This document shows, piece by piece, positions 10,626-63,338 of a DNA stretch of 64,000 nucleotides; the stretch's first letter is position 1, and the number at the start of each line of letters is the position of its first letter. The notes beneath the pieces were generated by a model that ran no database searches, had not been told where the DNA came from, and was given only the letters and a program-made list of their open reading frames with translations. A program made the translations under genes and the position numbers. This DNA is from Candidatus Omnitrophota bacterium (GTDB lineage Bacteria; Omnitrophota; Gorgyraeia; Zapsychrales; Zapsychraceae), in NCBI GenBank assembly GCA_029261065.1, contig JAJDCB010000022.1:443-64442 (forward strand), written 5' to 3'.

Positions 10626-10640
10626 GGAGCGGAGATTATT

Positions 10641-13600
10641 ATGATTAATAAAATTATAGAAGGTTGTCTAAGAAACAGATTTTTAGTGATCGCAGCCTTT
10701 GTTCTTGTTTTTGTTTTTGGTGTCTCATCCATGAAAAATACGCCGGTTGATGCTATTCCAGATATAGGAGAGTTGCAGGTCATTGTGTATGCGGAGTGGC
10801 CGGGAAGAAGTCCTCAAGATGTTGAAGACCAAGTTATTTATCCCCTAACAACAGGATTAATGGGGACACCAAAAGTTAAAGTTGTTCGATCTTCTGCGGG
10901 ATTTGGTTTTGGTCTGGTGAATATGATTTTTGAGGATGCGACGGATTATTATTGGGCGAGGACAAGAGTATTAGAAAGATTAGACTTTGCTAAGAAAGAT
11001 ATGCCTCAAGATGCGGTTGTAACGTTGGGACCAGATGCCACAGCACTTGGTCAAATTTTTTGGTACACCGTTGAAGGTAAAGATAAAAGTCTTGATGAAC
11101 TAAGGTCCATTCAAGATTGGTTTGTTAGATATCAATTAACATCCGTTGAAGGTGTGTCGGAGGTTGCCTCCGTTGGTGGTTATGTCAAACAATATCAAGT
11201 GGACGTTGATCCCAATAGGTTGAATGTTTTCAACGTTAGTCTTTTACATGTCATGGAGGCGATTAAGCTTTCTAATATTGATGTGGGCGCGAAAGTATTT
11301 GAAGAAGGTGGTGTTGAATATGTTGTGCGAGGATTAGGTTTCATTAAAAGTATCGAAGATATTGAACAAATTGTTATTGGGGTGCATCAGGGGACGCCGT
11401 TAACGATTAAAGATGTAGGTCAAGTGACACTTGGTCCTGACTTTCGACGAGGAGCTTTAGATAAAAATGGCCGTGAAGTCACAGGTGGCGTTGTCTTAAT
11501 GCGTTTTGGAGAAAATCCTTTAAAAGTTATTGAAAGGATTAAAACAAAGATCGAAGAGATTTCAGTTGGTTTGCCTGAAGGGGTCACAATTGTTCCTTTT
11601 TATGATCGCACAGGACTTATCAAAGATTCTATTCATACGTTAAGCAGTGCTTTGACACAAGAGATGATTATTACGGTGTTTGTTATTGCCGTATTTTTAT
11701 TTCATCTTGGGGGAAGTATTATTATTTCCATGGTTCTTCCTATAGGTGTTTTGATTGCCTTTATTTTGATGCGGCAAGTCGGTGTCGATGCCAACATTAT
11801 GTCGTTGGGAGGAATCGCAATCGCTATTGGTGTTATGGTCGACTCGGGCTGTGTTTTAGTTGAAAATATTTATCGGAAACTTGTCGAGAAACGAGAAGAA
11901 AGAAATGTTAATAAGTTATCTAGTGAAGAAAGATTAAACGTATGTATTGAGGCGTCCCAAGAAGTGGGAAGACCTGTTTTGTTTGCTTTGTTAACCACGA
12001 TTGTAAGTTTTGTGCCTGTTTTTGTTTTAACGGGACAAGCGGGGAGATTATTTAGCCCATTAGCTTACACAAAAACGTTTGCCATGATTGGAGCGGCTAT
12101 TATTGCACTAACGTTGCTGCCTACTCTGTGTTATTTTTTCTTAAGAGGACGATTGCGTGCCGTCAAAGATAACAAAACAGCAAAAATATTACATAAAAAC
12201 TATACACCCATGCTTCGATGGTCATTAAAGAATAAAAAAATAGTCGTTATTATTTCTCTTATTGTATTGGTCACAGGGTTGTCTTTAGGATCGATCATGA
12301 AACAAGAGTTTATGCCGCCTTTAAATGAAGGTGATTTGTTGTTTATGCCGGTTTTGATGCCGGGAGCATCATTAACCCAAGTTATGGAGGTGATGCAGAA
12401 ACAAAATATTATTATTAAAGATGAAATCCCAGAGGTTAAACAAGTCGTCGGAAAGCTTGGACGCGCTGAGACCGCGACAGATCCCGCTCCTGTCGTCATG
12501 ATTGAGAGTATTATCAATCTTAAAGACAAAAAGTATTGGCGAAAAGGGATGACGCGAGAAAAACTGATTGTCGAAATTCAAGAAAAAACAAAGATGCCAG
12601 GTGTGAGTCCCATTATGACACAACCGATACGTAATCGTATTGATATGTTAGCCACAGGAATCCAAACACCTGTTGGTATTAAAGTTTTTGGAGCTGATCT
12701 AAAAGAAATAGAAAAAATTGGGATTCAGTTAGAAGGTATTGTTGCTCAAGTTGATGGTGCTGTTGCCCCTTACGCGGAACGTATCGGTGGTCGCGCCTAT
12801 TTTGAAATGGACATTGATCGTGAACAAGCCGCTCGTTACGGCATTCATGTTCAAGATATTCAGGATTTAATCATGACAGGTATTGGTGGGATGAATGTCA
12901 CAACGACGGTGGAAGGTCGTGAGCGTTATCCTGTTCGCGTTCGGTATATGCGCGAGTTGCGTGATAATCCCGAAGATCTAAAACGTATTTTCGTCCCAAC
13001 CCGTTGGAAGTGGGAAAACGCACCGGGACCATTACAAATCCCGTTAGCTCAATTGGTTGACTTTAGAAAGGTTGCTGGACCTTCGATGATTTTATCTGAG
13101 AACACCATGCCGTATGCCCGTGTCTTTGTTAATGTTGATCAAAGTAAAGTGGGGCTTGTTGATTTTGTAAAAAAAGCTCAACAAAAAGTTGAAGAAGAAA
13201 TTAATCAAGGCCGTCTAAATATTCCTGCTGGATATTACATCAGTTGGTCAGGGCAGTTTGAAGCAGAGTTAGAATCAAGAAAGAAATTATTGCCTTCGAT
13301 GATGATTGCTTTACTTGTGATTCTCATTTTACTTTACATGGCGTTTAAGAATTTTAGAGTGTTAGGAATATTAGCGGGTGTCCTTCCGTTATCCTTGATG
13401 GGAGGGATTATTTTACTATTTGTTTTAAACTTTAAGTTTTCGACAGCGGTATGGGTTGGTTTTATAGCCTTGTTTGGTGTTGCGACCGATAATGCAGTTG
13501 TATTGCTTTCAACTCTTGAGAATTTATTTAAAGAAAGACTGCCCAAAACAGTAGAAGATATTAGAGCGACAGTTACTGAAGCTGGGTTATTAAGAGTTCG

Positions 13601-13793
13601 ACCTGCGATGATGACAACTATGACGACCATTATCGCTTTACTCCCCGTCATGTTTGCCACCGGCAGCGGTTCAGAAATCATGAAACCCATGGCCGCACCA
13701 ACGGTAGGTGGTCTTGTTACGGCAACCTTGGCCAATTTAATATTGGTGCCTGTGTTGTATGCATGGATTAAAGAAAAAGAAATACAAGACTAA
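10641..13793 (+). CDS. Heavy-metal efflux RND transporter (CusA/CzcA family)
   Basis: 1050 aa with 12-TM RND topology. N-terminus IIEGCLRNRFLVIAAF...AIPDIGELQVIVYAEWPG is typical of the HME-RND family. Confidence 0.9.
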   Translation: MINKIIEGCLRNRFLVIAAFVLVFVFGVSSMKNTPVDAIPDIGELQVIVYAEWPGRSPQDVEDQVIYPLTTGLMGTPKVKVVRSSAGFGFGLVNMIFEDATDYYWARTRVLERLDFAKKDMPQDAVVTLGPDATALGQIFWYTVEGKDKSLDELRSIQDWFVRYQLTSVEGVSEVASVGGYVKQYQVDVDPNRLNVFNVSLLHVMEAIKLSNIDVGAKVFEEGGVEYVVRGLGFIKSIEDIEQIVIGVHQGTPLTIKDVGQVTLGPDFRRGALDKNGREVTGGVVLMRFGENPLKVIERIKTKIEEISVGLPEGVTIVPFYDRTGLIKDSIHTLSSALTQEMIITVFVIAVFLFHLGGSIIISMVLPIGVLIAFILMRQVGVDANIMSLGGIAIAIGVMVDSGCVLVENIYRKLVEKREERNVNKLSSEERLNVCIEASQEVGRPVLFALLTTIVSFVPVFVLTGQAGRLFSPLAYTKTFAMIGAAIIALTLLPTLCYFFLRGRLRAVKDNKTAKILHKNYTPMLRWSLKNKKIVVIISLIVLVTGLSLGSIMKQEFMPPLNEGDLLFMPVLMPGASLTQVMEVMQKQNIIIKDEIPEVKQVVGKLGRAETATDPAPVVMIESIINLKDKKYWRKGMTREKLIVEIQEKTKMPGVSPIMTQPIRNRIDMLATGIQTPVGIKVFGADLKEIEKIGIQLEGIVAQVDGAVAPYAERIGGRAYFEMDIDREQAARYGIHVQDIQDLIMTGIGGMNVTTTVEGRERYPVRVRYMRELRDNPEDLKRIFVPTRWKWENAPGPLQIPLAQLVDFRKVAGPSMILSENTMPYARVFVNVDQSKVGLVDFVKKAQQKVEEEINQGRLNIPAGYYISWSGQFEAELESRKKLLPSMMIALLVILILLYMAFKNFRVLGILAGVLPLSLMGGIILLFVLNFKFSTAVWVGFIALFGVATDNAVVLLSTLENLFKERLPKTVEDIRATVTEAGLLRVRPAMMTTMTTIIALLPVMFATGSGSEIMKPMAAPTVGGLVTATLANLILVPVLYAWIKEKEIQD

Positions 13794-19977: not shown

Positions 19978-20003
19978 AAATTAACTTTAAAAAGAAGGTG
20001 ATT

Positions 20004-21248
20004 ATGTCAAAAATTTTGGATCAGGATATATTAAAGAAAAAAAGATTCGTTAATATTTTTCACAATCCGATTACAGCTTGGATCATATTGGGAACTTCCT
20101 TGGGGTTAACATTTTTCGCCTATAGAATATCAAGCGACTTTGTCCATAAACGTGCGGAGGATAGATTTATTTTTAGACTGCACGAAATTAAGCAAGCCAT
20201 TAAAGATAGATTGGATGTTTATGAACAAGTTCTTTGGAGTGGTGTTGGCTTAATGTATGCTTCTGAAAATTTGAAAAGAGAAGGATTTAGTAAGTTTGTT
20301 GAAGCTTTAAATATTCAGAGGCATTGGCCTGGCATACAAGGTGTGGGTTTTAGTGTTTTTTTAAAACCCGAGGAGAAACAAGCTCATATTGATGCGATTC
20401 GTGCTCAAGGATTTCCAAATTTTCAGATTAAGCCTGAGGGTGAGCGAGAGATGTATTCCTCAATTGTTTATTTGGAACCCTTTGATTGGCGCAATAAACG
20501 AGCTTTTGGCTATGACATGTGGTCAAATGATATGCGTCAAGAAGCAATGAAGCGTGCACGTGATGAAGCGGTTGCAGCGACATCAGGTATTATCACACTG
20601 GTGCAGGAGACGAACGATGATGTGCAAAAAGGTTTTTTAACTTATGTTCCAGTATATAAGAGTAAGAGCATTCCAAGAACGCTCGAAGAGCGGAGAAACC
20701 AATTTCTCGGCTGGGTTTATGCTCCTTATCGGACGGGTAATTTAATGAAAGGTATTCTGGGAGCGGAGGATCCCAATATTGAATTTGAAATCTTTGATGG
20801 GGAGAACATGAATCAAGAGTCGCTTCTTTTTGATAGCAATGATGAATTGCATATATCTTTATCGAATGATAAGCCAGATTTCGAAAAAGTTATTAAAGTT
20901 GTTAATCAAGGGCGAACATGGACGTTATATTTTAGTACTCCTTATAATTATTTAAGTAACAGTGAAAAAAATCAACCTCGTTTTGTGGCGATCGCGGGAC
21001 TTATAGTAGATGTTCTTCTTTTTTACGTTATTTATTCGTTATATTTTATCAATCGACGAGCAGAGGCAATGGCCCGTGAATTAACAAAAGATGCTAAAGA
21101 GGATAAAGAAAGTTTAATGCAGGCTCTTAAGGAAGCTGAAGGTAAGGCCGATGAGCTTAAGAAAACAAATGAAGTTATGGTTAATCGTGAAGCTAAGATG
21201 GTCGAGCTAAAAAAAGAAATTATTGAGCTTAAAAAAAGAGTAAAGTAA
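20004..21248 (+). CDS. CHASE-domain membrane protein with no output domain (TM - CHASE - TM - cytoplasmic coiled coil)
   Basis: Periplasmic region carries the CHASE signature (W..RAFGYDMWS...AMKRARDEAVAATSGIITLVQE). The 70-aa C-terminal tail is charged coiled coil only. A GTG at 19998 is an alternative start. Confidence 0.7.
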   Translation: MSKILDQDILKKKRFVNIFHNPITAWIILGTSLGLTFFAYRISSDFVHKRAEDRFIFRLHEIKQAIKDRLDVYEQVLWSGVGLMYASENLKREGFSKFVEALNIQRHWPGIQGVGFSVFLKPEEKQAHIDAIRAQGFPNFQIKPEGEREMYSSIVYLEPFDWRNKRAFGYDMWSNDMRQEAMKRARDEAVAATSGIITLVQETNDDVQKGFLTYVPVYKSKSIPRTLEERRNQFLGWVYAPYRTGNLMKGILGAEDPNIEFEIFDGENMNQESLLFDSNDELHISLSNDKPDFEKVIKVVNQGRTWTLYFSTPYNYLSNSEKNQPRFVAIAGLIVDVLLFYVIYSLYFINRRAEAMARELTKDAKEDKESLMQALKEAEGKADELKKTNEVMVNREAKMVELKKEIIELKKRVK

Positions 21249-21251
21249 ATT

Positions 21252-23522
21252 ATGAAAGTAAGACAACAATGTGTGATCGCTTTAATTTTTGTAATGGGCG
21301 TTGGTTTTTCTTTATTCGGGTATCGAATGGCTCTTCAATGGGAAAATAGTCGTAGAGAATTATTTTTTGAGAGCGCTGCCAAGGAGGAAATTAAAGCATT
21401 ACAAGAAGCTATTAAGGATGATTTGGATTATTTAGATTCCATAAAGGGTTTTTACAATGCTTCTACTTTTGTTGATCGGCATGAGTTTCAAATTTTCACA
21501 CAAGATATACTTGCACGGAATCGAACCATTCAGGCTTTAGAATGGATTCCTCGTGTGAGGTTAGAAGAAGTGCCTAAATATGTGAATTTAGCAAAAGCCG
21601 ATGGGTATAATAACTTTCAAATTTTAGAAAAAGATAAAGTTGGGAAAATGAAAGCAGTAGGTGTCAGGAAAGAATACTTTCCTGTTTATTATGTGGAACC
21701 AATGTTGGGCAATGAGAACGCTTTTGGATTTGATTTGGCCAGTAATAAAGCTCGTAAAGATAGTTTGACGATGGCACGCGATACAGGCGAAATGAAAGCA
21801 ACCGCGAGTATAACCTTAGTGCAGGAGGAAAAAAATCAAAAAGGTTTTTTGGTTTTTAATCCGATATATAAGGACAATTCTTGGAATACTACGGTAGAAG
21901 ACCGTCGGGAAATGTTAGTAGGTTTTGTGCTAGGTGTTTATAGCGTTAAAGATCTTGTAGATGGGAGTCTCATCAGGCTTAAAACGACGGATCTAAAATT
22001 TTTTGTATATGAATTGTTTGAGAATAATGAAAAAAATCTTTTATATATTCACGGAGAAAAAAATGAAGGACATTTAAAAGATGAAATAAATGAACGTAAG
22101 GTAGAAGACTCAAGATATTTGAAATACGGTCAAATTATTGATGTTGCCGGAAAAAAATGGGAAGTTGTAGCGCAACCGTTGAATAATACTTTTGGGAAAA
22201 AAACGAGCCAACCTATTCTTGTACTAGTAATTTGTCTTATGATTACTATATTTTTAGTTGGTTTTACATTTTCTAATATGAGAAAAACAGCTGATATTGA
22301 GAAATTGGTCAAGTTGCGAACGCGAGAGTTGATGGAGGCTAAGCAGAGTTTAGAAAAAAATAAAGTTAAGATTGAATCGGCCCTTACTTATGCTGAGAAA
22401 ACTAAGCTTGCATTACAAAATGTTATGGAAGACTTAGAAGCGGAACGTGTAAAATTAGCGTCGAGTGAAGAGAGATTTGCAATAGCCAATTTTTCAGCAA
22501 AAGTTGGTATTTGGGATTGGGATGTTGTTAATAATCATATCATTTGGGATAAGGCTATGTATGGACTTTATGGAATCAAGGAGGGAGATTTTGGAGGCGC
22601 TATTGAAGCTTGGGAAGCTGGTCTTCATCCTGAAGATGCCAAAAGGTGTCAAGTTGAAATTCAAGCAGCACTAAAGGGGGAGAAGAATTTTGATACTGAC
22701 TTTCGAATTGTTTGGCCTGAAGATAAATCCATTCATCACATTCGGGCGCATGCAACAGTTCAGAGAGATGAGAAAGGTGAGGCTATTCGGATGCTTGGGA
22801 CAAACTGGGATATTACTGAGCTTAAGAGTTTGGCACAACGTTTAGCTTCTTCTAATCAAGAGCTTGAACAATTTGCTTATGTGGCATCGCATGATTTGCA
22901 AGAGCCGATACGTAAGATCGTTGGATTTACACAATTGTTTTCAAATTTGTTTGAAGGAGAGATGGATGGGAAGAAAAAAGAATATATGCATTATATTGTA
23001 GATGGTGCGAAACGAATGCAGTTGTTGATTCAAGATTTGTTGCAATACTCAAGAGTTGGAAGCACGCAATTGGATTTTGAGGAATTTGATTTTACCTCGA
23101 TTGTTGAAGAAGCTAAAGCCAATCTTGAATTAATTATTGATGAAACGGATACTAAAATTACGTATAAGCAACTACCAAGTTTAAAAGTTCATAGAGGTTT
23201 TATGGTCAGATTAATTCAAAATTTGATTAACAATTCAATAAAATATAGAAGTGAGGCTCCTCCTGAGATTAATATATTAGCTGAGTTAAAAAATCGTCGC
23301 TGGGAATTTACGATTTCTGATAATGGCATTGGTATTGCTGAAGAATTTTTTGAGCAGGTCTTTGTCGTATTTAAACGGTTACATGGAAAGGGCGAATATT
23401 CAGGTACGGGTATTGGACTGGCTATTTGCAGACGCATTGTTGAAAGGCATGGGGGAAGGATTTGGATTAAAAAATCGATGTCTAGCAAAGGGACAACTTT
23501 TAAATTTTATCTTCCCGAATAG
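21252..23522 (+). CDS. CHASE-domain sensor histidine kinase (TM-CHASE-TM-PAS-HisKA-HATPase_c)
   Basis: CHASE signature (ALEWIPRV...AFGFDLASN...ARDTGEMKATASITLVQE). PAS (VGIWDWDVVNNHIIWD). H-box ASHDLQEPIRKI. G-boxes GTGIGLAICRRIV. The gap to the upstream CHASE gene is only 3 nt. Confidence 0.85.
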   Translation: MKVRQQCVIALIFVMGVGFSLFGYRMALQWENSRRELFFESAAKEEIKALQEAIKDDLDYLDSIKGFYNASTFVDRHEFQIFTQDILARNRTIQALEWIPRVRLEEVPKYVNLAKADGYNNFQILEKDKVGKMKAVGVRKEYFPVYYVEPMLGNENAFGFDLASNKARKDSLTMARDTGEMKATASITLVQEEKNQKGFLVFNPIYKDNSWNTTVEDRREMLVGFVLGVYSVKDLVDGSLIRLKTTDLKFFVYELFENNEKNLLYIHGEKNEGHLKDEINERKVEDSRYLKYGQIIDVAGKKWEVVAQPLNNTFGKKTSQPILVLVICLMITIFLVGFTFSNMRKTADIEKLVKLRTRELMEAKQSLEKNKVKIESALTYAEKTKLALQNVMEDLEAERVKLASSEERFAIANFSAKVGIWDWDVVNNHIIWDKAMYGLYGIKEGDFGGAIEAWEAGLHPEDAKRCQVEIQAALKGEKNFDTDFRIVWPEDKSIHHIRAHATVQRDEKGEAIRMLGTNWDITELKSLAQRLASSNQELEQFAYVASHDLQEPIRKIVGFTQLFSNLFEGEMDGKKKEYMHYIVDGAKRMQLLIQDLLQYSRVGSTQLDFEEFDFTSIVEEAKANLELIIDETDTKITYKQLPSLKVHRGFMVRLIQNLINNSIKYRSEAPPEINILAELKNRRWEFTISDNGIGIAEEFFEQVFVVFKRLHGKGEYSGTGIGLAICRRIVERHGGRIWIKKSMSSKGTTFKFYLPE

Positions 23523-25013: not shown

Positions 25014-25658
25014 TTAGATGGTCATAGCCGTTATAACAAGATCATTTTCAAATATAAATTTTCCGTTAAAGTGTAAATGTTCTTTCAGGGTATTTTTGGA
25101 TGGGTTGGTGATAGTGGCTTTAAATGCATAGATCGTAGGATCTATGCTAATAAGAACATCTTTAAAGTTTAGCCAGTTTTGAGTTAAAGGAAATTGGCAT
25201 TTATAAAAACATTCTTTAGCGCTGAAAATAAGGGCTAAATATTTTTGCCGTTCTTCATCGGGTAATGTTTGAACCCATTGCCATTCATCATTTTGACAAA
25301 TATGATCATGAATATTGGAATTAACTCTACTTATTTTTTCTGCATCAATTCCTATACTTTGAATGTCATTTTTTAAAGCAATAGTTACGGCACAATAACT
25401 ATTTGTGTGAGTAATGCTGCCGCAGATATTCTCAGGCCAAAGCGGAGCGCGATGTTCTCCCATAAGTAAGGGGAAGTCTTGGATGTCAAATTGAGAAAGT
25501 AATGTTTTAGCTAAGAGGCGGGAAGCGCAAAATTCTCGTTTGCGTTTATCTCCCATTTTATGCGTAAGCGAATGCTCTTGAGGGTGCAGGGAGCCTTCAA
25601 CGTGGGATGGATTAGCACTTGCAATTTTAACGGTTGAGGGTAATATTTTTTCTAACAT
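25014..25658 (-). CDS. 4'-phosphopantetheinyl transferase (Sfp/EntD type)
   Basis: Motifs KRKREFCASRLLAK, WPENICGSITHT and IGIDAEKI match the PPTase signature boxes. Confidence 0.75.
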   Translation of the reverse strand: MLEKILPSTVKIASANPSHVEGSLHPQEHSLTHKMGDKRKREFCASRLLAKTLLSQFDIQDFPLLMGEHRAPLWPENICGSITHTNSYCAVTIALKNDIQSIGIDAEKISRVNSNIHDHICQNDEWQWVQTLPDEERQKYLALIFSAKECFYKCQFPLTQNWLNFKDVLISIDPTIYAFKATITNPSKNTLKEHLHFNGKFIFENDLVITAMTI

Positions 25659-25958: not shown

Positions 25959-25987
25959 TTGACATATCAAACATTGATATGTTAAAC
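25959..25987 (+). promoter_or_regulatory. Candidate promoter (TTGACA...) with the palindrome CATATCAA-aca-TTGATATG (25963..25981) as a putative MarR operator
   Basis: 8-bp perfect inverted arms with a 3-nt spacer overlap the -35/spacer region about 35 nt upstream of the marR ATG. Confidence 0.5.
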
Positions 25988-26015
25988 TTTGTTTAGGTTA
26001 AACAAAGGAGAAAAA

Positions 26016-26516
26016 ATGGCAGCCATGAAGAACTTTTATTTAGATACCGTTAAAGGAAGGGTGAGTGCCGAGGCCTTTAATGGATTAATTTGTGTCTACT
26101 CACTTTTACAAAGAAAAATGGAAGAGTACTTTAAGCCCTATGCGTTGACACCGGTTAAATTTAATACGCTTATGCTGATACGCCATTTGGGTGCTGATCA
26201 AGGGGTCTCTCAGAATGAAATTTGTCACCATCTTATTGTTAGTCCTTCCAATATCACACGTCTTATTGATCGTATGATTGCTGATGAATATGTAGAGAGG
26301 ACGATATCTGAAAAAGATCGAAGAGTTAAGTTGATAAAGATAACAAAGAAGGGAACTAAAGTTTTAGATACGGTCTTTCATGGGTATGGCGAGATGATTC
26401 AACAATCCGCTTATGTCTTAGAACGATCAGATGTGGAGAAGTTATCTGAATTGTTATTGAAATGGTTTTCAAAGTTAGAGTCTTCTTTTAAAAAAGATGA
26501 GGTCGATGATGAATAA
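26016..26516 (+). CDS. MarR-family transcriptional regulator
   Basis: Winged-HTH MarR pattern (LTPVKFNTLMLIRHLG...SQNEICHHLIVSPSNITRLIDRM). RBS aaggag. An upstream in-frame ATG at 25989 is the alternative. Confidence 0.8.
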   Translation: MAAMKNFYLDTVKGRVSAEAFNGLICVYSLLQRKMEEYFKPYALTPVKFNTLMLIRHLGADQGVSQNEICHHLIVSPSNITRLIDRMIADEYVERTISEKDRRVKLIKITKKGTKVLDTVFHGYGEMIQQSAYVLERSDVEKLSELLLKWFSKLESSFKKDEVDDE

Positions 26517-26847
26517 GAAAAATTTATTGTTAATTCTTTTTGCTGGCTTATCTTTTGGTATGGTTGCTTTAGTTGTTAATACTTCTTTAAAGAGTAATCT
26601 TTTTGAAGTTCTTCCATATCTAAATTCAGAACCATGGTTTGTGACAACAATTGTTGATTTTTATTTTAATATTGTGATCATCTCTGTTTGGGTTGTCTAT
26701 AAAGAGAAAAGCCATTTTAAGGCTTTGATTTGGATTATTTCATTTATTTTATTAGGAAGTATATCAACGGCATTTTATGTGTTTCTTCAAATAATAACTT
26801 TAAAACAAAATGACACAATGGATCAAGTTGTATTAAGAAAGGTGTAA
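26497..26847 (+). CDS. Small integral membrane protein (3 TM), function unknown
   Basis: Hydrophobic helices. Overlaps the marR stop, so it sits in the operon with the lipid-modification genes. Confidence 0.45.
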   Translation: MRSMMNKKNLLLILFAGLSFGMVALVVNTSLKSNLFEVLPYLNSEPWFVTTIVDFYFNIVIISVWVVYKEKSHFKALIWIISFILLGSISTAFYVFLQIITLKQNDTMDQVVLRKV

Positions 26848-26851
26848 GGAT

Positions 26852-27655
26852 ATGAGTCAGGTAATATTACATACTATTGCTTTGGGAACGATAAGCGTGA
26901 TTAGCATGTTTTTTATTATTTGGGTTGTTCATATATTTCTAAAGAATGCTGGTGTTGTTGATGTCGGTTGGGGGTTAGGTTTTATGATTCTTTGTGGAAT
27001 CTATGTCTTGATGGGGGAGGGTTTTAATTTGCGTAATACAATCCTTTTTCTTATGGTTTCTTTATGGGGCTTACGGATTGTATTGTTTTTGTTTAAAAGA
27101 TTAACACTCGAAGGCCATGAAGATCGTCGGTATCAGAAAATTCGTAAAGAGTGGGGTGGTAATGTAACTCTCAAGTTTTTGTTCTTCTTTGAGTTTCAAG
27201 CCGTTCTTGAAATCATCCTAGCTATTCCGTTTTTAATTGTTAGTTTAAATCCTGCCTCGGGGTTATCTGTGCTTGAAATTTTTGGCGTAATCATATTTTC
27301 TGTGGCTCTTATTGGAGAGACGATCGCGGATGAACAATTACAAAGTTTTAAAAATAATTCCGAAAATAAAGGTAAGACGTGTAATGTCGGGTTGTGGAAC
27401 TATTCGCGACATCCGAATTATTTCTTTGAATGGCTTGTATGGATGGGCATTTTTGTCTTTGCTATTGCGAGTCCCTACGGTTGGGTATCATTTGTTAGTC
27501 CACTACTAATGTATTACTTAATGGTTTATGTCAGTGGAGTTCCTTTGGCAGAGGAACAATCCATTCTTTCACGCGGTGATAATTATAGAGAATATCAAAA
27601 GACAACAAGCATGTTTTTTCCTATGCCTAAAAGGAAAATTAAGGAGGTCCTATGA
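26852..27655 (+). CDS. DUF1295 / steroid-5-alpha-reductase-like membrane protein
   Basis: C-terminal NxxRHPNYFFEWLVW motif characteristic of the DUF1295/ICMT-like family. Confidence 0.7.
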   Translation: MSQVILHTIALGTISVISMFFIIWVVHIFLKNAGVVDVGWGLGFMILCGIYVLMGEGFNLRNTILFLMVSLWGLRIVLFLFKRLTLEGHEDRRYQKIRKEWGGNVTLKFLFFFEFQAVLEIILAIPFLIVSLNPASGLSVLEIFGVIIFSVALIGETIADEQLQSFKNNSENKGKTCNVGLWNYSRHPNYFFEWLVWMGIFVFAIASPYGWVSFVSPLLMYYLMVYVSGVPLAEEQSILSRGDNYREYQKTTSMFFPMPKRKIKEVL

Positions 27656-28698
27656 GAACAATGGCTCAAGTTACTAATCGGTTATTAGAGAAAGGCGTTA
27701 TTCCTGATCCATTGATTCGTTTTGGTATACGAGGATTACTTAAAGATAAACTAAAAGAAGAAAGAAAGAATAAAAAAAGTTTTGGAGAAAAAAACAAGTT
27801 CGAATTAATTGAATTGTTAAAAACGTCCCCTATTGCTGTCAATACTACGGATGCAAATGAACAACATTATGAGTTGCCCACTGAATTCTTTAAATTTGTG
27901 ATGGGTAAACACATGAAATACAGTTGTGGTTTATGGAAGGAGGGGACAACAAGTTTTGATACCTCTGAGGAGGATATGCTTCAATTAACAGTAGAACGCG
28001 CTCAAATTTTAGATGGGCAACGTGTTCTTGAATTGGGCTGTGGTTGGGGTTCTTTAACATTGTTTATGGCCCAGAAATTTCCAAAGTGTCAAATTCTTGG
28101 CGTATCAAATTCTTCAACACAAAAGCAATACATATTAAGAGAAGCGAAGAAAAGACAATTAACAAATGTTCGTATTATGACAGCTGATATGAATGATTTT
28201 CTAACAGAAGAAAATTTTGATCGCATCGTCTCAGTGGAGATGTTTGAACATATGCGAAATTATAAAAAGTTACTTGGAAAAATCTCAGATTTTCTTAACA
28301 AGGAAGGTAAGTTGTTTATTCATATTTTCACACATAAAGAGTTTGCTTATCTTTATAAAGAAGAGGATGAGAATGATTGGATAGCAAAATATTTCTTTAC
28401 GGGAGGCATTATGCCCTCAGATGATTTGTTATTCCATTTTCAAGATCATCTCAAGGTCGAGGAGCATTGGCATGTAAATGGGAGTCATTATCAAAAAACA
28501 TCAGAAGAATGGCTTAAGAACATGGATCGAAATAAAGATAAGATAATGCCTATTTTAAAAAATACATATGGTGAAGATTATCGTAAATGGTGGGTTTATT
28601 GGAGGGTGTTTTTTATGTCGTGTGCGGAGTTGTGGGGTTATAACAATGGGACTGAATGGATTGTGAGTCATTATCGACTTATAAAGGAGTCACGTTAG
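27652..28698 (+). CDS. Cyclopropane-fatty-acyl-phospholipid synthase-family SAM-dependent methyltransferase (short paralog, UfaM-like candidate)
   Basis: SAM motif I VLELGCGWGSLTL. CMAS-family C-terminal region. ATGA overlap with the upstream gene. Confidence 0.8.
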   Translation: MRTMAQVTNRLLEKGVIPDPLIRFGIRGLLKDKLKEERKNKKSFGEKNKFELIELLKTSPIAVNTTDANEQHYELPTEFFKFVMGKHMKYSCGLWKEGTTSFDTSEEDMLQLTVERAQILDGQRVLELGCGWGSLTLFMAQKFPKCQILGVSNSSTQKQYILREAKKRQLTNVRIMTADMNDFLTEENFDRIVSVEMFEHMRNYKKLLGKISDFLNKEGKLFIHIFTHKEFAYLYKEEDENDWIAKYFFTGGIMPSDDLLFHFQDHLKVEEHWHVNGSHYQKTSEEWLKNMDRNKDKIMPILKNTYGEDYRKWWVYWRVFFMSCAELWGYNNGTEWIVSHYRLIKESR

Positions 28699-29948
28699 TG
28701 CAAACTATTGCCATTATAGGAACAGGGATATCAGCGATGGGTGCTGCTTACTTTCTTAAGGATAAGTATGATATTTCTTTTTATGAAAAAAATAATTACC
28801 CAGGTGGGCATACCAACACGTTAACTATTGAAGAAGAAGGTGAGCCAATATATATCGATTCCGCGTTTATGGTTTACAACGAACGGACATATCCCAATTT
28901 AACGCGATTATTTAAAGAGCTTGATGTTAAGGCCAAGGATGCCGATATGTCTTTTAGCGTCCAACATAAGGCTAGCAATTTAGAATATTGTGGGACAGGT
29001 TTAAATGGATTGTTTGCTCAACGGAAAAATATTTTTAGCTTAAGTCATTGGAAGCTTATTCTTGAGATGGACCGTTTTAATAAAGAGGCGTTAGAAGTTT
29101 TAGATGACGATCGGTATCTCTCTTATTCGTTACTAAAATATGTCACAGAAAAAAGTTATAGCAAAAATTTTGTAAATAGATTCTTAACACCCATATCTTC
29201 GGCAGTTTGGTCAACGCCTCCTGATTTGATGCTTGAATTTCCTGTTGTTACATTAGTTCGGTTTTTTAAAAATCATGGTTTCTTGGGATTACGTGGTCAT
29301 TATCAATGGAAGACGGTTAGGGAAGGCTCGCAACGTTATCGAGATAAAATTTTGGGAGGTTTTAAGGGTCAAGTATTTTTAAATCGAGCAGCAGTGAGGG
29401 TTTATCGAGAAGATTCCAAGGGGGTTGTTGTCGATCAGCAGGGTGATAAAAAGACGTATGATAAAGTTATTATGGCGTCGCATGCGGATGATACTTTGAA
29501 AGTATTAGATGATGCCAATCCAGAAGAAAAAAAATTGTTATCAAAATTTTCTTATCAAAAAAATAGAGTAACGTTACATTGTGATGAAACAATCATGCCT
29601 CGTATGCGTTTGGCGTGGAGTTCGTGGAATTATCTTATAACAGAAAAAGGTCCTTCAACCATTTATTGGATGAATAATCTTCAAGGTGTGTCTAAACAAA
29701 AAAATTATTTTGTTTCCATTAATGACAATGATTTGGTAGATGAATCAAAAATAATTTGGGACTCAAGTTATGAACACCCATTATTTAACGTTGAGGCGAT
29801 CAAGACACAAAAGCAGTTGCCCAAACTAAATGAAGATGGTCCGATATATTTTTGTGGAGCCTATTTTAAATATGGATTTCATGAAGATGGTCTGACTGCG
29901 GGCTTAAATGTGGCAAGATCAATTACAGGTGAGACGATATGGAATTAA
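28698..29948 (+). CDS. FAD/NAD(P)-binding amine-oxidase-like oxidoreductase (UfaD-like fatty-acyl desaturase candidate)
   Basis: Rossmann dinucleotide motif IAIIGTGISAMGAAYFL...YEKNNYPGGH. GTG start at 28698 overlaps the preceding stop. The first in-frame ATG at 28656 is the alternative. Confidence 0.75.
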   Translation: MQTIAIIGTGISAMGAAYFLKDKYDISFYEKNNYPGGHTNTLTIEEEGEPIYIDSAFMVYNERTYPNLTRLFKELDVKAKDADMSFSVQHKASNLEYCGTGLNGLFAQRKNIFSLSHWKLILEMDRFNKEALEVLDDDRYLSYSLLKYVTEKSYSKNFVNRFLTPISSAVWSTPPDLMLEFPVVTLVRFFKNHGFLGLRGHYQWKTVREGSQRYRDKILGGFKGQVFLNRAAVRVYREDSKGVVVDQQGDKKTYDKVIMASHADDTLKVLDDANPEEKKLLSKFSYQKNRVTLHCDETIMPRMRLAWSSWNYLITEKGPSTIYWMNNLQGVSKQKNYFVSINDNDLVDESKIIWDSSYEHPLFNVEAIKTQKQLPKLNEDGPIYFCGAYFKYGFHEDGLTAGLNVARSITGETIWN

Positions 29949-30733
29949 CATCTTCTTTATATGAAACAGAAATCATGCATCATCGACTGACACCAAAAGA
30001 ACATAAGTTTTCTTATCGCTTTTTTTCGTTTTACATCAATTTAGATGAAATTGATGAGCTTACAAGTCGTATTACTTTATTAAGTCACAATAAATTTAAC
30101 ATTTATTCTTTCTTTGATAAAGACCATATGGAGGTAGGTGATAAAACAATTAAAGAAAAGATTCTTAATTATTTAGCAGAGCAGGGCATTGATTTAACAA
30201 ATGGACGGATCATGTTGCTGACTTATTTACGTACTTTTGGCTATGTTTTTAATCCAGTTTCCTTTTATTATTGCTTTGATGAAAACGACTCCCCTGTATG
30301 CGTCGTACCAGAGATCGGAAACACATTTGGAGAAATAAAAGCCTTTTTTATTAATCAAAATCATTTAGTGGGAAATAAATTTAAAGATTGTCAAGACAAG
30401 TACTACTATATATCACCATTTACACGACTGAATGATCAATTAGATTTTAAACTAACTATACCAAGTGAATATTTAGATGTTCGTATCAATACATCAAGAG
30501 ATGGTGAAAATATTCTTCTTACATCAATGATGGGGCCTAAAAAGGAATTAAATAATGTGCAATTATTTTGGATGACCTTAAAGTTTCCTTTTGTGACCTT
30601 AAAAGTTATTGTTTTGATTCATTGGCATGCCTTATTGTTGTGGTTTAAGAAAATTGTTTTTAAAAATAAAGAAGAACATATGGATTTACAAAGAGACGTT
30701 CTTAGAAAAAATATTCATCTTAAGCCTCAGTAG
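29939..30733 (+). CDS. DUF1365-family protein (UfaO-like candidate)
   Basis: N-terminal LYETEIMHHRLTPKEHKFSYRFF pattern typical of DUF1365. 10-nt overlap with the oxidoreductase gene. Confidence 0.7.
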   Translation: MELTSSLYETEIMHHRLTPKEHKFSYRFFSFYINLDEIDELTSRITLLSHNKFNIYSFFDKDHMEVGDKTIKEKILNYLAEQGIDLTNGRIMLLTYLRTFGYVFNPVSFYYCFDENDSPVCVVPEIGNTFGEIKAFFINQNHLVGNKFKDCQDKYYYISPFTRLNDQLDFKLTIPSEYLDVRINTSRDGENILLTSMMGPKKELNNVQLFWMTLKFPFVTLKVIVLIHWHALLLWFKKIVFKNKEEHMDLQRDVLRKNIHLKPQ

Positions 30734-30758
30734 ATGATTTAAAAAAGGGAAGGTTAAT

Positions 30759-32027
30759 ATGCCTGGAATAAAAACTATTCACAAAAGAAATAAAGGTGCC
30801 CATAAAAGATTAAGTCTATATCAAAAAATTATTGATAAAGTTTTTCGGCCGATGACTTTAGGGGGATTAACAATTACGTTGCCTGATGGTGATTTATTAG
30901 AATATGGAGATGGGAATGGCGTTATCGCTAATGTTCGTGTTTTAGATAATGTTTTCTTTAAAAAGTGTGTTCTCTACGGTGATGTGGGTTTTGGTGAGTC
31001 TTATGTTGATGGTGATTGGGAGACGGAGGACATCACAAAGGTCATCGAATGGATGATTACGAATGTTGAAAACCACCCAACACTTATGTCAGATAAGATT
31101 AAGAAATCTCCGGTTAATTTTTTTAAAATGTTTAATGATGCCATTTCGTTATTTCGTAAAAATTCTATGCAAGGAAGTCGTAAGAATATAAGTGCTCATT
31201 ATGATTTAGGGAATGATTTTTATCAGAAATTTCTCGATCCGAGTATGACTTATTCTGCCGCGTATTTTAAAAAATCTAGTGATTCGTTAGAAGAGGCTCA
31301 ATATCAAAAATATGAACAGCTTTGTCAAAAGGTGTGCCTTAAACAGACAGACCATCTTTTGGAAATTGGAAGTGGATGGGGCGGTTTCGCTATTTACGCA
31401 GCCAAAAACTTTGGATGTCGCGTAACAACAGTGACGGTATCGCAGCAACAATATGATTTTGCTTTAGCAAAGATACGTCACGAAGGTTTAGAAGATAAGA
31501 TTACAATTAAGTTTCAAGATTATCGTCAGATAGAAGGTTTGTATGATAAAATTGTATCCATTGAGATGTTAGAGGCAGTAGGACATGATTTTTATGAGAT
31601 TTACTTTAAGCAATGTCACCGTTTACTTAAAAAAGATGGAATGTTAGCTTTGCAGGTCATAACATCACCTGATAACCGATATGAATCATTTCGAAGAAGT
31701 ACGGATTGGATACAAAAGTATATTTTTCCAGGAAGCCTTCTGCCTTCGGTATCCGTTATTCAAGAAAATATTTGTAAGACAGGAGATTTGACGTTGTTAG
31801 ATTTTGAAGACATGAGCAAACATTACGCCAGAACTTTACATGAATGGTTTTTAGAGTTTAATTTAAAATTAGATGACATTAAAAATTTGGGATTGTCGGA
31901 AGAATTTGTTAGAAAGTGGAATTATTATTGGTGTTATTGTATGGCAGCCTTCAAGACGAGAAACATTAGTGTAGCGCAGCTTGTATATACTCGACCCAAC
32001 AACTTATCTCTTGGAGGCACAATATGA
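30759..32027 (+). CDS. cfa: Cyclopropane-fatty-acyl-phospholipid synthase
   Basis: Full-length CMAS architecture with SAM motif LLEIGSGWGGFAIYAAK and the C-terminal YWxYC motif. Confidence 0.85.
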   Translation: MPGIKTIHKRNKGAHKRLSLYQKIIDKVFRPMTLGGLTITLPDGDLLEYGDGNGVIANVRVLDNVFFKKCVLYGDVGFGESYVDGDWETEDITKVIEWMITNVENHPTLMSDKIKKSPVNFFKMFNDAISLFRKNSMQGSRKNISAHYDLGNDFYQKFLDPSMTYSAAYFKKSSDSLEEAQYQKYEQLCQKVCLKQTDHLLEIGSGWGGFAIYAAKNFGCRVTTVTVSQQQYDFALAKIRHEGLEDKITIKFQDYRQIEGLYDKIVSIEMLEAVGHDFYEIYFKQCHRLLKKDGMLALQVITSPDNRYESFRRSTDWIQKYIFPGSLLPSVSVIQENICKTGDLTLLDFEDMSKHYARTLHEWFLEFNLKLDDIKNLGLSEEFVRKWNYYWCYCMAAFKTRNISVAQLVYTRPNNLSLGGTI

Positions 32028-32587
32028 AAAAAATAATTTTAGCATTAGTGATCGTTTTATTATCGCAAGGATCATCTGCTAATTCTCCAAAAGAGCTCCA
32101 TGGTATTCGTTTTGCGGGTGATTACGTTTACGAGGGAGAGGAGCTGGTTCTACAAGGTGTTGCTTTAAAAAGACATTTCTTTATTAAAGCCTTTGTTGCT
32201 GGCTTATATTTAGGGGAACCTGTTATTACTGATGATTTTTTTGAGAATGTTCCTATAAGGATTGAAGTGTCCTATTTTGTAAATATTCCTGGCAAAAAAT
32301 TATCAAAGTATACAAGAGGTTTGATGCGCAAAAATGTAACAAAAGAGGAATATCAATCTATTAATAAAGAAATAAATATGATGAATCAATATTTTGTGGA
32401 TTTGAAACCCGGGGATCGTTATGCCTTAACGTATATCCCAGAAATAGGAACTCAATTTGAATATAATGGCGATTTTGTTGGTGTGATACCTGGAAAAGAT
32501 TTTGCTAACGGATTGTTCTCAACATGGATTGGTGTTCATCCTATGGATAAAAAAGTTAAACAACAGATATTGGGTTTGGCCTCATAA
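32024..32587 (+). CDS. Chalcone-isomerase-like (fatty-acid-binding) periplasmic protein
   Basis: Signal peptide plus a CHI-like fold pattern (HGIRFAGDYVYEGEELVLQGVALKRHFFIKAFVAGLY). ATGA overlap with cfa. Confidence 0.6.
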   Translation: MKKIILALVIVLLSQGSSANSPKELHGIRFAGDYVYEGEELVLQGVALKRHFFIKAFVAGLYLGEPVITDDFFENVPIRIEVSYFVNIPGKKLSKYTRGLMRKNVTKEEYQSINKEINMMNQYFVDLKPGDRYALTYIPEIGTQFEYNGDFVGVIPGKDFANGLFSTWIGVHPMDKKVKQQILGLAS

Positions 32588-32670
32588 ATATATTGTTTGC
32601 AATAATTTTTGTTTTGAGTAAAATAAATAATTCTTACATTTTATTTTAATTCAACAGCCAAAAAATATTA

Positions 32671-33042
32671 GTGAATCATAAACTCACAAAGAAAGTTGTA
32701 TCGCTTCTCGTTTCTATTTTGTTTTTTATTTGGATTCTTCCTTTAGGGGCGTTTATTGCACCGGAGAAAGAAGAGGCTGCGTGTAATGGGCAACGCGGTA
32801 TTTGTTTGTGCTCTCACTTGATTGCAAAGCATGTTGCTGAGACTGTGGCTCAAGCAGGATCGGTATTTAAGAGTGGAGGAGCGGCTCAAAAAGAAAAGAA
32901 TGGCTTCTCCTCTCTTAATGATTTTCTTGTTCTAAAACAGAGTTTTTCTCACAATATTTTAATAAAGGCATGTTCAAAAGAGTTGGCATCATCCTACCAA
33001 TATGCTTTTATCCGACCTATTGATCATATTCCTAAGGTTTAA
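32671..33042 (+). CDS. Hypothetical membrane-anchored protein
   Basis: N-terminal TM helix. Cys-containing region CNGQRGICLCSHL. No known domain recognised. Confidence 0.35.
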   Translation: MNHKLTKKVVSLLVSILFFIWILPLGAFIAPEKEEAACNGQRGICLCSHLIAKHVAETVAQAGSVFKSGGAAQKEKNGFSSLNDFLVLKQSFSHNILIKACSKELASSYQYAFIRPIDHIPKV

Positions 33043-33094
33043 ATTTTCTCCCTCATTCAATTTTTACTTATTTTAATTACATTAGGAGATATTT

Positions 33095-34096
33095 ATGAAA
33101 TTAAAAAGGATATTTCTTTTTATCCTAGCTGGAATTAGTGTTTTTATATCCCATGGACTATCCTTTGCCGGTGAAGTTGAAGATCATGCCCCTATTGGTG
33201 TGATGGGTGATCATCAACACAAAAAAGGCGAGTGGATGGCATCTTACCGGTATATGCGTATGGACATGCCCGAACATTACACGGGTACAAAAAAACAATC
33301 CATCTCAGATGTACATAATGATTTTGTGGTATCTCCTGTCGATATGACTATGGAGATGCATATGTTGGGATTGATGTATGGCGTGTCTGATGAGTTAACC
33401 TTGATGGTGATGGTTCCGTATTTAATTAAAGATATGGAACATCGCAGAAGAACAGACAGCAAACAGTTTAGTACGCATTCTCAAGGTTTGGGGGATGTTA
33501 AGTTATCTGGGATGTATTCTTTAAAAGAGATGACGGAGTTGCCTCTCCATTTAAACATGGGTATTAGCGCGCCTACAGGCTCGATTAATCGAACGGATCG
33601 AACGTTGTTGGGGCCGGATAGAAATTTGCCTTATCCGATGCAATTAGGATCTGGTACGGTTGATTTTCATCCAGGTGTTACGTATTTGGATAAATCAGAG
33701 AATTGGTCTTGGGGTGCTCAAGCTAATTCGATTGTTCGTTTCGGTAGAAATGAGCAGAAGTATAAATTGGGCAATGCCTATGACGCGAGTTCTTGGTTAG
33801 CATATAAGTTTAACGAGCTCGTTAGTTCATCGATACGTGTTAAGGGAAGCATTTGGGGCAATGTCGATGGAGCGGATCCTAGGTTAAACGTTAATTTAGT
33901 TCCAACAGCCGATCCTAATTTGCAAGGTGGGGAAAGGGTTGATATGTTTTTAGGAGTTAACCTTCTTTCACATAAAGGAGCTCTTAAAGATCATCGCTTA
34001 GCACTTGAAGTTGGATATCCTGTTTATCAAAATCTAACAGGGCCGCAACTTGGTGTTGGTCTTCAAGGAACTGTTGGTTGGCAAAAAGCTTGGTAA
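33095..34096 (+). CDS. Outer-membrane beta-barrel protein of the MetA-pathway/Phenol_MetA_deg-like transporter family
   Basis: Signal peptide. N-terminal HAPIGVMGDHQHKKGEWMASYRYMRM motif. C-terminal aromatic residue (..QKAW). Confidence 0.65.
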   Translation: MKLKRIFLFILAGISVFISHGLSFAGEVEDHAPIGVMGDHQHKKGEWMASYRYMRMDMPEHYTGTKKQSISDVHNDFVVSPVDMTMEMHMLGLMYGVSDELTLMVMVPYLIKDMEHRRRTDSKQFSTHSQGLGDVKLSGMYSLKEMTELPLHLNMGISAPTGSINRTDRTLLGPDRNLPYPMQLGSGTVDFHPGVTYLDKSENWSWGAQANSIVRFGRNEQKYKLGNAYDASSWLAYKFNELVSSSIRVKGSIWGNVDGADPRLNVNLVPTADPNLQGGERVDMFLGVNLLSHKGALKDHRLALEVGYPVYQNLTGPQLGVGLQGTVGWQKAW

Positions 34097-34113
34097 ACAA
34101 ATCAACAAAGCAT

Positions 34114-34150
34114 AAAAAAGCTCTGAGATATCATTCTCAGAGCTTTTTTA
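34114..34150. terminator. Bidirectional rho-independent terminator
   Basis: Stem agctctgaga / tctcagagct flanked by A6 and T6 runs. Confidence 0.75.
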
Positions 34151-34166
34151 TGTTTCGTATTGCTTA

Positions 34167-62441: not shown

Positions 62442-63233
62442 ATGGATAAATATCAGATTCTTGGAATTGTGCTTTTTACACTTATTCTTCTCGCGGAGAA
62501 CTTCTTTCCCTATAGAAAGCATTATAAGCACCGGATGCGACATTATGGACGTAACACTGTTTTATCAGCCGTGAATGGATTGATTATGGGATTGTCTGGG
62601 GCCTATATCACCGTGCATGTCTTTTTATGGGTGGCTGAGAATAAGATAGGAATGCTTAATCAATTTGAAGCCTCATTTGTTATTAAAGCTATCTTGGCTT
62701 TTTTGATCTTTGATGCGTGGACTTATTTCTGGCATCGGATCAATCATGTGATTCCTTTTCTGTGGCGATTTCATCGTGTGCACCACAATGATCCGGCGAT
62801 GGATGTTAGTACTGCGCTACGATTCCATCCAATCGAAATATTGTTATCAGCCATTATTAATCTCGGTATCATTGCGGCCTTTGGGATTCGCCTGGAGCAT
62901 CTCATCGTCTATAAACTTATTTTTCATACCAATGTTTTTTTCCATCACAGTAACGTCGCTATTTCTGATTCCGTTGATAAGATGTTACGTTACATCATCG
63001 TGACACCCAATATGCATAAAGTGCATCACTCCTGCAAACAAGAAGAAACAGATTCAAACTTTGCGAGTATTCTCTCATGGTGGGATCGTTTATTTGGTTC
63101 TTATTGTGAACGTGATCCAAAGTCGATTATATTTGGATTAGACTCTTATATGGAAGAGCGATGGCAAACCGTTAAGGGGTTGTTTAAGTTGCCGTTTGCA
63201 GGGCCTTGTAAGAAAAAAGAAGATAACGGTTAA
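62442..63233 (+). CDS. Fatty-acid hydroxylase / sterol-desaturase-family membrane di-iron enzyme
   Basis: Histidine boxes HRINH, HRVHHND and HKVHHS. Confidence 0.8.
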   Translation: MDKYQILGIVLFTLILLAENFFPYRKHYKHRMRHYGRNTVLSAVNGLIMGLSGAYITVHVFLWVAENKIGMLNQFEASFVIKAILAFLIFDAWTYFWHRINHVIPFLWRFHRVHHNDPAMDVSTALRFHPIEILLSAIINLGIIAAFGIRLEHLIVYKLIFHTNVFFHHSNVAISDSVDKMLRYIIVTPNMHKVHHSCKQEETDSNFASILSWWDRLFGSYCERDPKSIIFGLDSYMEERWQTVKGLFKLPFAGPCKKKEDNG

Positions 63234-63338
63234 TTTCGCAGAAAAAATTATTTTGACGAAATTCTTTCCTTTCCCTATAATGAGGACCTTCACACAAGGG
63301 AAATAACAAATCATTAATTACATTTAAGGAGCGATATT

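Follow-up and report, generated by a model that had tools for sequence, protein, structure and literature searches.

The 64,000-nucleotide (nt) stretch of contig JAJDCB010000022.1 analysed here (hereafter the window), from the Candidatus Omnitrophota assembly GCA_029261065.1, is AT-rich (~36% G+C) and carries almost every gene on the plus strand. Between positions 25959 and 32587, open reading frames (ORFs) and Pfam matches define a compact plus-strand series of eight genes, which encode in order a MarR-family regulator, two membrane proteins of the DUF1475 and DUF1295 families, a short methyltransferase, a flavoprotein, a DUF1365 protein, a long methyltransferase of the CMAS family and a chalcone-isomerase-like protein (Table 1). 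An earlier note on this DNA had described these genes as a MarR-headed operon resembling a cluster for methylated or furan fatty acids. A Pfam profile search upholds all eight of its domain assignments, including the small membrane protein placed after marR, which is DUF1475 and whose translation shows three hydrophobic segments, and the tight junctions that it reported are indeed overlaps or gaps of at most 25 nt. We argue below that the series is probably a single transcription unit in which the full route to furan fatty acids (FuFAs) is encoded together with its own repressor and placed under the control of that MarR protein.

Table 1. Coordinates of the marR-headed operon, its promoter region and the genes that follow it in the window (aa, amino acids; RBS, ribosome-binding site; SAM, S-adenosylmethionine)
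Feature	Position	Strand	Evidence or remarks
Sigma-70-type promoter	25959..25988	+	-35 TTGACA 25959-25964, 18-nt spacer, extended -10 TGtTAAACT 25980-25988
Putative MarR operator	25959..25985	.	Palindrome filling the promoter spacer and overlapping both -35 and -10
MarR winged-helix protein, predicted repressor, 166 aa, first operon gene	26016..26516	+	Pfam MarR/MarR_2, 1e-10, above cut-offs
DUF1475 small integral membrane protein, 116 aa	26497..26847	+	Pfam 9e-15; start possibly 26509
DUF1295 membrane enzyme, ICMT / steroid-reductase superfamily	26852..27655	+	Pfam DUF1295 1e-71, Steroid_dh 2e-7
Candidate FufM-like SAM methyltransferase, 348 aa	27652..28698	+	CMAS superfamily, CNMT-like branch
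Candidate UfaD-like FAD-dependent fatty-acyl desaturase, 416 aa from GTG	28698..29948	+	Pfam Amino_oxidase, NAD_binding_8
Candidate UfaO-like DUF1365 protein, 264 aa	29939..30733	+	Pfam DUF1365 7e-69
Candidate UfaM-like CMAS-family SAM methyltransferase, 422 aa	30759..32027	+	Pfam CMAS 9e-87
Chalcone_3 (chalcone-isomerase-like) protein, last conserved operon gene	32024..32587	+	Pfam 5e-32
Two downstream genes and first strong terminator	32671..34155	+	Outside the conserved cluster

Two gene starts differ from those given by the ORF tool. The marR gene begins at an ATG behind the RBS AAGGAG, not at the listed TTG at 25989, in agreement with the N-termini of its orthologues, and the flavoprotein gene likely begins at a GTG behind the RBS AAAGGAG and not at the listed position 28656. 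The DUF1365 gene overlaps the flavoprotein gene by 10 nt.

The genes for the flavoprotein, the DUF1365 protein and the long CMAS protein stand in the order UfaD-UfaO-UfaM, and the operon holds the same four enzyme families, with the same UfaD-UfaO-CMAS order, as Cereibacter (Rhodobacter) sphaeroides and Rhodopseudomonas palustris (PMC7380195). In the pathway described by Lemke 2020 (PMC7380195), UfaM methylates cis-vaccenate on phospholipid, the FAD protein UfaD (RSP1091) forms a methylated diene, the DUF1365 protein UfaO (RSP1090) inserts O2-derived oxygen to yield the furan, and FufM (RPA0924), whose identity to UfaM is 26%, supplies the second methylation; both UfaD and UfaO require O2. The corresponding genes are arranged as RSP1091-1090-1089 in R. 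sphaeroides, the last of CMAS type, and as RPA2571-2569 (ufaD-ufaO-ufaM) in R. palustris, and RSP1089, at the ufaM position, is dispensable in R. sphaeroides (PMC7380195). With respect to the trio named in the earlier note, the FAD enzyme and the DUF1365 protein stand, but the methylase at the UfaM position is the long CMAS protein and not the short one. The description of this long protein as a full-length Cfa likewise stands in part, since it carries a CMAS domain (Table 1) and its best Protein Data Bank (PDB) matches are CFA synthases (1e-57), whereas its score of 292.8 against the Cfa model NF008686 falls short of the equivalog cut-off of 400. We rejected its assignment as a true cyclopropane synthase on the grounds of that cut-off and of its place at the ufaM position; its predicted activity would be the methylation of a monounsaturated acyl chain. 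UfaM enzymes are CMAS-family SAM methylases whose product is a methylated trans-olefin and not a cyclopropane.

As proxies for the characterised loci we used annotated plasmids of Mesorhizobium terrae, Rhizobium tropici CIAT 899 and Acinetobacter. On the M. terrae and R. tropici plasmids, genes for an FAD oxidoreductase, DUF1365 and a CFA-family protein, and for DUF1295 and a short CFA-family protein, flank a pair annotated as 'sigma-70 factor + ChrR family anti-sigma-E factor'. Best matches between the window enzymes and those of these clusters are reciprocal throughout, giving a one-to-one correspondence that extends to the pair of DUF1295 and short methylase found in both settings. Identities amount to 38-40% for the FAD oxidase against its counterparts in the sigmaE-ChrR-linked rhizobial clusters and 33% for DUF1365 against the rhizobial plasmid homologues, and, against the proteobacterial plasmid clusters, to 38-42% for the long CMAS, 36-37% for DUF1295 and 45-47% for the short methylase; on the rhizobial plasmids taken by themselves, the long CMAS shows 38-39% and DUF1295 36%. 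The long and short methylases are paralogues (27% identical), and neither cross-matches the rhizobial counterpart of the other. UfaD enzymes are of the phytoene-desaturase/amine-oxidase-like type; the closest structure to the flavoprotein is that of the amine oxidase LkcE. The DUF1365 protein shares with its rhizobial homologues the invariant, catalytic-looking residues H14, R16, H22, D36, N105, E125, N128, K154 and SPF159-161, and invariant polar positions of DUF1365 are retained in all of these lineages; by its family it would be the enzyme that closes the furan ring with O2.

The same combination of genes recurs widely. When genomes were scanned with an alignment of DUF1365, the 80 closest loci listed, none of them alphaproteobacterial, came from metagenome-assembled genomes (MAGs) of Omnitrophota, Bacteroidota and Verrucomicrobiota, from Planctomycetales-labelled and further MAGs, and from Chthoniobacter flavus. 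Counted over the 47 loci flanked by 6 kb or more of sequence on either side, the FAD oxidase, DUF1365 and the long CMAS are each present in 47, the short methylase and DUF1295 in 44 each (adjoining one another in 37 of the 43 that carry the two), DUF1475 in 26, from several phyla, and MarR and Chalcone_3 in two each. This invariance of the trio, in the order of the proven FuFA operons, argues against the view that the enzymes modify acyl chains short of furans, making methyl-branched, methylene or cyclopropane products, for example by CMAS methylation followed by DUF1295 reduction, with the FAD and DUF1365 proteins given over to other chemistry in a low-oxygen host. Such a route would accord with the match of DUF1295 to the Steroid_dh reductase family, with the membership of both methylases in a superfamily that includes cyclopropane and methyl-branch synthases, with the O2 dependence of UfaD and UfaO, and with the other roles that DUF1365 may possibly have (Lemke 2020, PMC7380195). 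However, the reductase match is weak and an ICMT-type methyltransferase is equally compatible (DUF1295 also gives a weak ICMT match, to 4a2n, E 0.008), the long CMAS remains under the Cfa equivalog cut-off, and the invariant DUF1365 residues are retained. We consider this explanation unlikely.

The short methylase, which had been described as CFA-synthase-like, does belong to the CMAS family, but its closest relatives are of the coclaurine N-methyltransferase (CNMT) type and not CFA synthases. Its best PDB match is the plant CNMT 6gkv, over its full length (E 2.6e-82), compared with 1e-30 for Escherichia coli CFA synthase, and it scores 168.7 against the NF008686 cut-off of 400. FufM is itself 38% identical to Arabidopsis AT4G33110/LIME1 (PMC10940516), a protein annotated as a putative coclaurine N-methyltransferase (PMC3388832), and the singlet-oxygen-induced Chlamydomonas CFA2 is labelled CNMT-like (PMC4067076). 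From the CNMT-like match, and from a divergence from the long paralogue close to that between UfaM and FufM (27% as against 26%), the short methylase is best read as FufM-like, in which case it would methylate the furan ring and convert a monomethyl to a dimethyl FuFA. With a FufM-like short methylase, all four known FuFA enzymes would be encoded in the operon, which would in turn point to a dimethyl FuFA as its product.

The affinity of the short methylase to alkaloid N-methyltransferases, and of DUF1295 to steroid reductases, could also be taken to indicate a substrate other than an acyl chain, whether a polyprenoid, quinone, hopanoid or sterol-like lipid, or a role in the detoxification of aromatic compounds or quinones, with MarR as an MhqR-like sensor of quinones or catechols. 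Several MarR orthologues bear the JGI label '2-MHQ and catechol resistance regulon repressor', and related operons carry YceI, lipocalin and 3-beta-HSD/NmrA genes. These JGI names, however, were assigned automatically, and FufM, itself proven to methylate fatty-acyl chains, belongs to the CNMT-like subfamily. The core trio has its counterpart in a proven acyl-chain pathway, and in other phyla the same cluster is headed by a fatty acid desaturase. A non-acyl substrate is in our judgement very unlikely. The remaining proteins, DUF1295, DUF1475 and the chalcone-isomerase-like protein, appear from their recurrence to be conserved accessories of the FuFA pathway, the last of them probably lipid-binding. 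A Chalcone_3 gene lies within or at the end of the MarR-type clusters L002, L003, L005, L012, L014, L016-L019 and L101 (L denotes a locus in our collection), and a gene of the chalcone isomerase family is also found near the Acinetobacter plasmid cluster.

The regulator is bound to this cluster by linkage. We recovered 102 homologues of MarR, all metagenome- or MAG-derived and several labelled Candidatus Omnitrophica; those of 60-82% identity have a highly conserved N-terminus and recognition helix in common, with the N-terminal segment FYLDTVKGRPSAE strongly conserved and Cys26 mostly so. The cluster contains, or begins with, an orthologue of 51-82% identity in 13 distinct loci (L002, L003/L004, L005/L006, L012-L018, L026 and L101, plus L019 at 51% identity), L026 and L101 being Candidatus Omnitrophota MAGs by title. 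Every placeable orthologue of at least 58% identity adjoins the same cluster, and, where flanks are available, the MarR loci have unrelated genes on either side of it. The more distant homologues P0099 and P0092 (45-49% identity) and P0102 (40%) were set aside, none of them adjoining the cluster. No sigma factor, anti-sigma/ChrR, MerR/LitR or photolyase was found among the scanned window ORFs of at least 110 aa, and our literature search found no paper linking MarR to the FuFA pathway. The proposal that MarR stands here in the role of sigmaE/ChrR is supported by the linkage in 13 distinct loci together with the conserved promoter-embedded operator described below.

As to the kind of sensor that this MarR protein represents, its best PDB matches are generic MarR structures, and it reaches no NCBIfam equivalog cut-off (best 31-44 bits, as against 120-240) and joins no named subfamily (OhrR, MhqR, FabT or MarR proper); OhrR structures are absent among the 60 best PDB matches listed. 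Cysteine sensing of the OhrR kind was considered and rejected, given the absence of a subfamily match, a His in place of Cys26 in 2 of 30 aligned orthologues, and a SarZ match that misses the N-terminus, and it would be speculation to propose it. In L003 (11643-12095) and L012 (11635-12087) a Pyr_excise gene, for a pyrimidine-dimer DNA glycosylase, is inserted between DUF1295 and the short methylase. This gene links the MarR operons of these two loci to damage of the UV or photo-oxidative type, in parallel with the photolyase of the sigmaE and LitR regulons, and hints that the MarR signal may accompany such damage. In L014, L015, L016, L018 and L019, Chalcone_3 and/or DUF1475 come first and are followed by the operator, marR and then DUF1295 onward, which places marR and its operator in mid-cluster and splits the cluster into at least two transcription units there.

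Upstream of marR in the window, a promoter consensus scan finds 10 of 12 matches plus the extended TG, and the -35 and TGTTAA elements are kept across 14 aligned loci. The 8-3-8 palindrome noticed earlier is real: CATATCAA-ACA-TTGATATG at 25963-25981 is a perfect core, and it extends to 12-nt arms, TTGACATATCAA and TTGATATGTTAA, at 25959-25970 and 25974-25985 with 92% complementarity. When the intergenic region was shuffled 5000 times, 421 of the shuffled sequences (~8%) contained a perfect palindrome with 8-nt arms, and the significance of the element accordingly derives from its conservation across loci and not from its sequence alone. The string TAcTTGACATATCAAAtATTGATATGTTAA is almost invariant upstream of marR in the related loci and is the sole conserved intergenic block, with unalignable surroundings. 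In L017 both arms have changed in compensation (ATATTAA..TTAATAT), and a degenerate operator pattern has exactly one match in each of 16 MarR loci and none in the 88 other loci fetched; in L012 the motif is shifted and escapes the pattern. Elsewhere in the window there are just two matches, each with 2 mismatches, which is within chance. A palindromic spacer embedded in the promoter and confined to MarR loci looks like an autoregulatory MarR operator. In this the operon resembles autoregulated MarR, OhrR, MhqR and FabT operons, in which a co-transcribed winged-helix repressor is associated with a palindrome of ~19-27 bp over its own -35/-10, while it differs from the named MarR-family operons in a regulator that lies below all subfamily cut-offs and in a cargo that is a lipid-modification pathway.

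The same conservation bears on the alternative in which marR is merely a passenger on the transcript or has some other target, the conserved block being a strong promoter and not an operator. The block does hold the -35 and -10 elements, whose conservation would be expected in any case, and the operator is putative. Its palindromic part, however, is the spacer, which is normally unconserved and is here retained, with a compensatory change, in loci whose MarR proteins show 51-82% identity; the motif is found solely where this MarR occurs, and clusters that have no MarR carry other regulators at the same position. We regard a passenger MarR as highly improbable.

Several further features of the promoter region were observed. 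A second perfect palindrome, CTTTGTTTA-GGT-TAAACAAAG at 25987-26007, between the -10 and the marR RBS, was rejected as a component of this system, no relative keeping it. In L003, L012-L016 and L018 the marR start codon lies just 5-8 nt past the -10 element, implying leaderless marR mRNAs in those relatives, and in the window, L002, L005, L017 and L101 marR has a leader with an RBS. The upstream neighbour of marR is a divergent gene for an Sfp-type 4'-phosphopantetheinyl transferase (25014-25658, minus strand); a minus-strand promoter-like site at 25970-25941 overlaps the palindrome, and the Sfp-type neighbour is not conserved in related loci.

Across lineages the cluster is found with different regulators. 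In Alphaproteobacteria this regulator is sigmaE-ChrR (PMC7380195; M. terrae and R. tropici plasmids). A Methylacidimicrobium-labelled MAG (L097) has a divergent pair of extracytoplasmic function (ECF) sigma and anti-sigma genes at the cluster, and an Omnitrophota MAG (L023:5617-6441) and a Planctomycetales-labelled MAG (L049:5940-6821) have a PAS-LuxR(GerE) protein at the position of MarR. The PAS domain of the latter two matches LOV domains (~1e-21), but the motif GRNCRFLQG reads GKTPGILQG or GETPKILQG, with loss of the Cys. The candidate role of LOV photoreceptor was rejected on account of this replacement of the adduct-forming Cys, which leaves blue-light sensing unsupported, and the protein may instead act as a sensor of the flavin or redox type. 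A membrane fatty acid desaturase heads the cluster in Bacteroidota, Verrucomicrobiota and an Acinetobacter plasmid (L029:4986-5714, L045:7712-8692, L080:7599-8705, L025:2300-3046, L102:2924-3910). On the M. terrae plasmid (L103) and pRtrCIAT899a (L104), the sigmaE-ChrR-linked clusters are surrounded by fasciclin, SOUL-type heme-binding, DUF2177, lipocalin, TspO and MsrP genes, of which the fasciclin, SOUL and DUF2177 families are also represented in the Chlamydomonas SAK1 singlet-oxygen regulon (PMC4067076). Control by MarR would appear to be one more regulatory solution for this cluster.

Set beside the sigmaE-ChrR system, the window has a MarR protein with a palindrome embedded in the promoter and not an ECF sigma factor with its ChrR anti-sigma; it also differs from sphaeroides and palustris in the collection of all the genes in one operon, in the inclusion of DUF1475 and a chalcone-isomerase-like gene, and in a host from a candidate phylum. 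The phrB-ufaM cluster of Pseudomonas putida and P. mendocina holds ufaM, an FAD-dependent oxidoreductase and hypothetical genes and is light-inducible (PMC9758184); it is photolyase-linked, and its regulators are class II LitR (MerR-type) and short LOV photoreceptors (PMC9758184), so that the regulators of this cluster differ between lineages. By contrast, the window cluster is linked to MarR, with no photolyase or LitR in the scanned ORFs, and its relatives carry Pyr_excise instead. Among eukaryotes, the SAK1-dependent singlet-oxygen regulon of Chlamydomonas co-induces the same families (CFA1, the CNMT-like CFA2/CPLD27, DUF1365 and DUF1295; PMC4067076), and Arabidopsis co-locates them on lipid droplets as AtUFAMD1, AtUFAO1 and AtFUFM1/LIME1 (PMC10940516). 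The eukaryotic systems differ in their dispersed genes, in the fusion of UfaM and UfaD in plants and in their regulation by nuclear signalling pathways.

Taken with what is established for the alphaproteobacterial enzymes, this organisation makes the following scheme the most probable. A MarR dimer would bind the palindrome that fills the promoter spacer, block RNA polymerase at the promoter and, through this occlusion, repress its own gene together with the seven genes downstream. A chemical signal would free MarR from the DNA, the likeliest candidates being oxidised lipids, quinone-type electrophiles and fatty-acyl ligands. Upon derepression, the long CMAS (UfaM-like) would methylate a monounsaturated acyl chain on a membrane phospholipid, the flavoprotein (UfaD-like) would introduce a conjugated second double bond, the DUF1365 protein (UfaO-like) would insert O2-derived oxygen with closure of the furan ring, and the short CNMT-like enzyme (FufM-like) would add the second methyl group to give a dimethyl FuFA. 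A more ambitious version of this scheme, which we put forward only tentatively and hold to be rather doubtful, would make MarR a one-component chemical sensor that replaces both sigmaE-ChrR and LitR/LOV, perceives oxidised or electrophilic lipid or the FuFA itself and induces the complete dimethyl-FuFA pathway in Omnitrophota, with DUF1295 and DUF1475 as unrecognised working parts.

A number of points weigh against a MarR-controlled FuFA operon. Many Omnitrophota are thought to be anaerobic, whereas UfaD and UfaO need O2. The window itself offers, at 62442-63974, a gene of the di-iron O2-dependent fatty acid hydroxylase family and one for a 1-Cys/AhpC-type peroxiredoxin, which suggest that the organism meets oxygen. 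The closest annotated clusters of proteobacteria reach just 33-47% identity, and the presumed orthology to UfaM, UfaD, UfaO and FufM (Q3J4I7, Q3IYV7, Q3IYV8 and Q6NBA4) runs through intermediates. The window operon, as other Omnitrophota operons, has no fatty acid desaturase that would supply the unsaturated substrate. On the regulatory side, the MarR protein fits no specific sensor subfamily, the palindrome on its own is statistically unremarkable, and the genes upstream of the mid-cluster marR in L014-L016, L018 and L019 may lie beyond MarR control.

Beyond the operon, the downstream pair consists of a gene for a 123-aa protein that belongs to no family and one, preceded by its own RBS, for an outer-membrane-like protein of 333 aa; a terminator at 34108-34155, whose stem measures 20 bp, is the first strong one. 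A promoter-like site lies at 32596-32624. The two genes may be transcribed by read-through from the operon. We rejected them as members of the operon, neither being linked to the cluster elsewhere; in L002 the homologue of the 333-aa protein is located 9 kb upstream. Further upstream in the window, two adjacent CHASE-domain proteins, one of them a PAS histidine kinase, are encoded at 19998-23522 and are preceded by an FMN reductase gene and a glutathione S-transferase (GST)-like gene. At 8155-13793, downstream of genes for an HxlR regulator and a GST, lie all the parts of an RND efflux system: outer membrane factor, HlyD-type adaptor and AcrB-type pump.

In membranes, furan fatty acids scavenge radicals and singlet oxygen. 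To our knowledge, the bacterial FuFA pathway has been worked out in just two alphaproteobacteria, and its regulation is known solely through sigmaE-ChrR and LitR/LOV. What is new here is a MarR regulatory variant in a candidate phylum, the lipid-modification pathway itself being already known. With its sharply defined conserved operator, the MarR version would provide a handle on the chemical inducer of the pathway in non-phototrophic and partly subsurface bacteria. In Omnitrophota, Bacteroidota, Verrucomicrobiota and rhizobia, the trio is accompanied by the FufM-like methylase, DUF1295 and often DUF1475, and the capacity to make dimethyl FuFAs may therefore be wider than has been stated. Finally, the comparison of clusters nominates two domains of unknown function, DUF1295 and DUF1475, for study.

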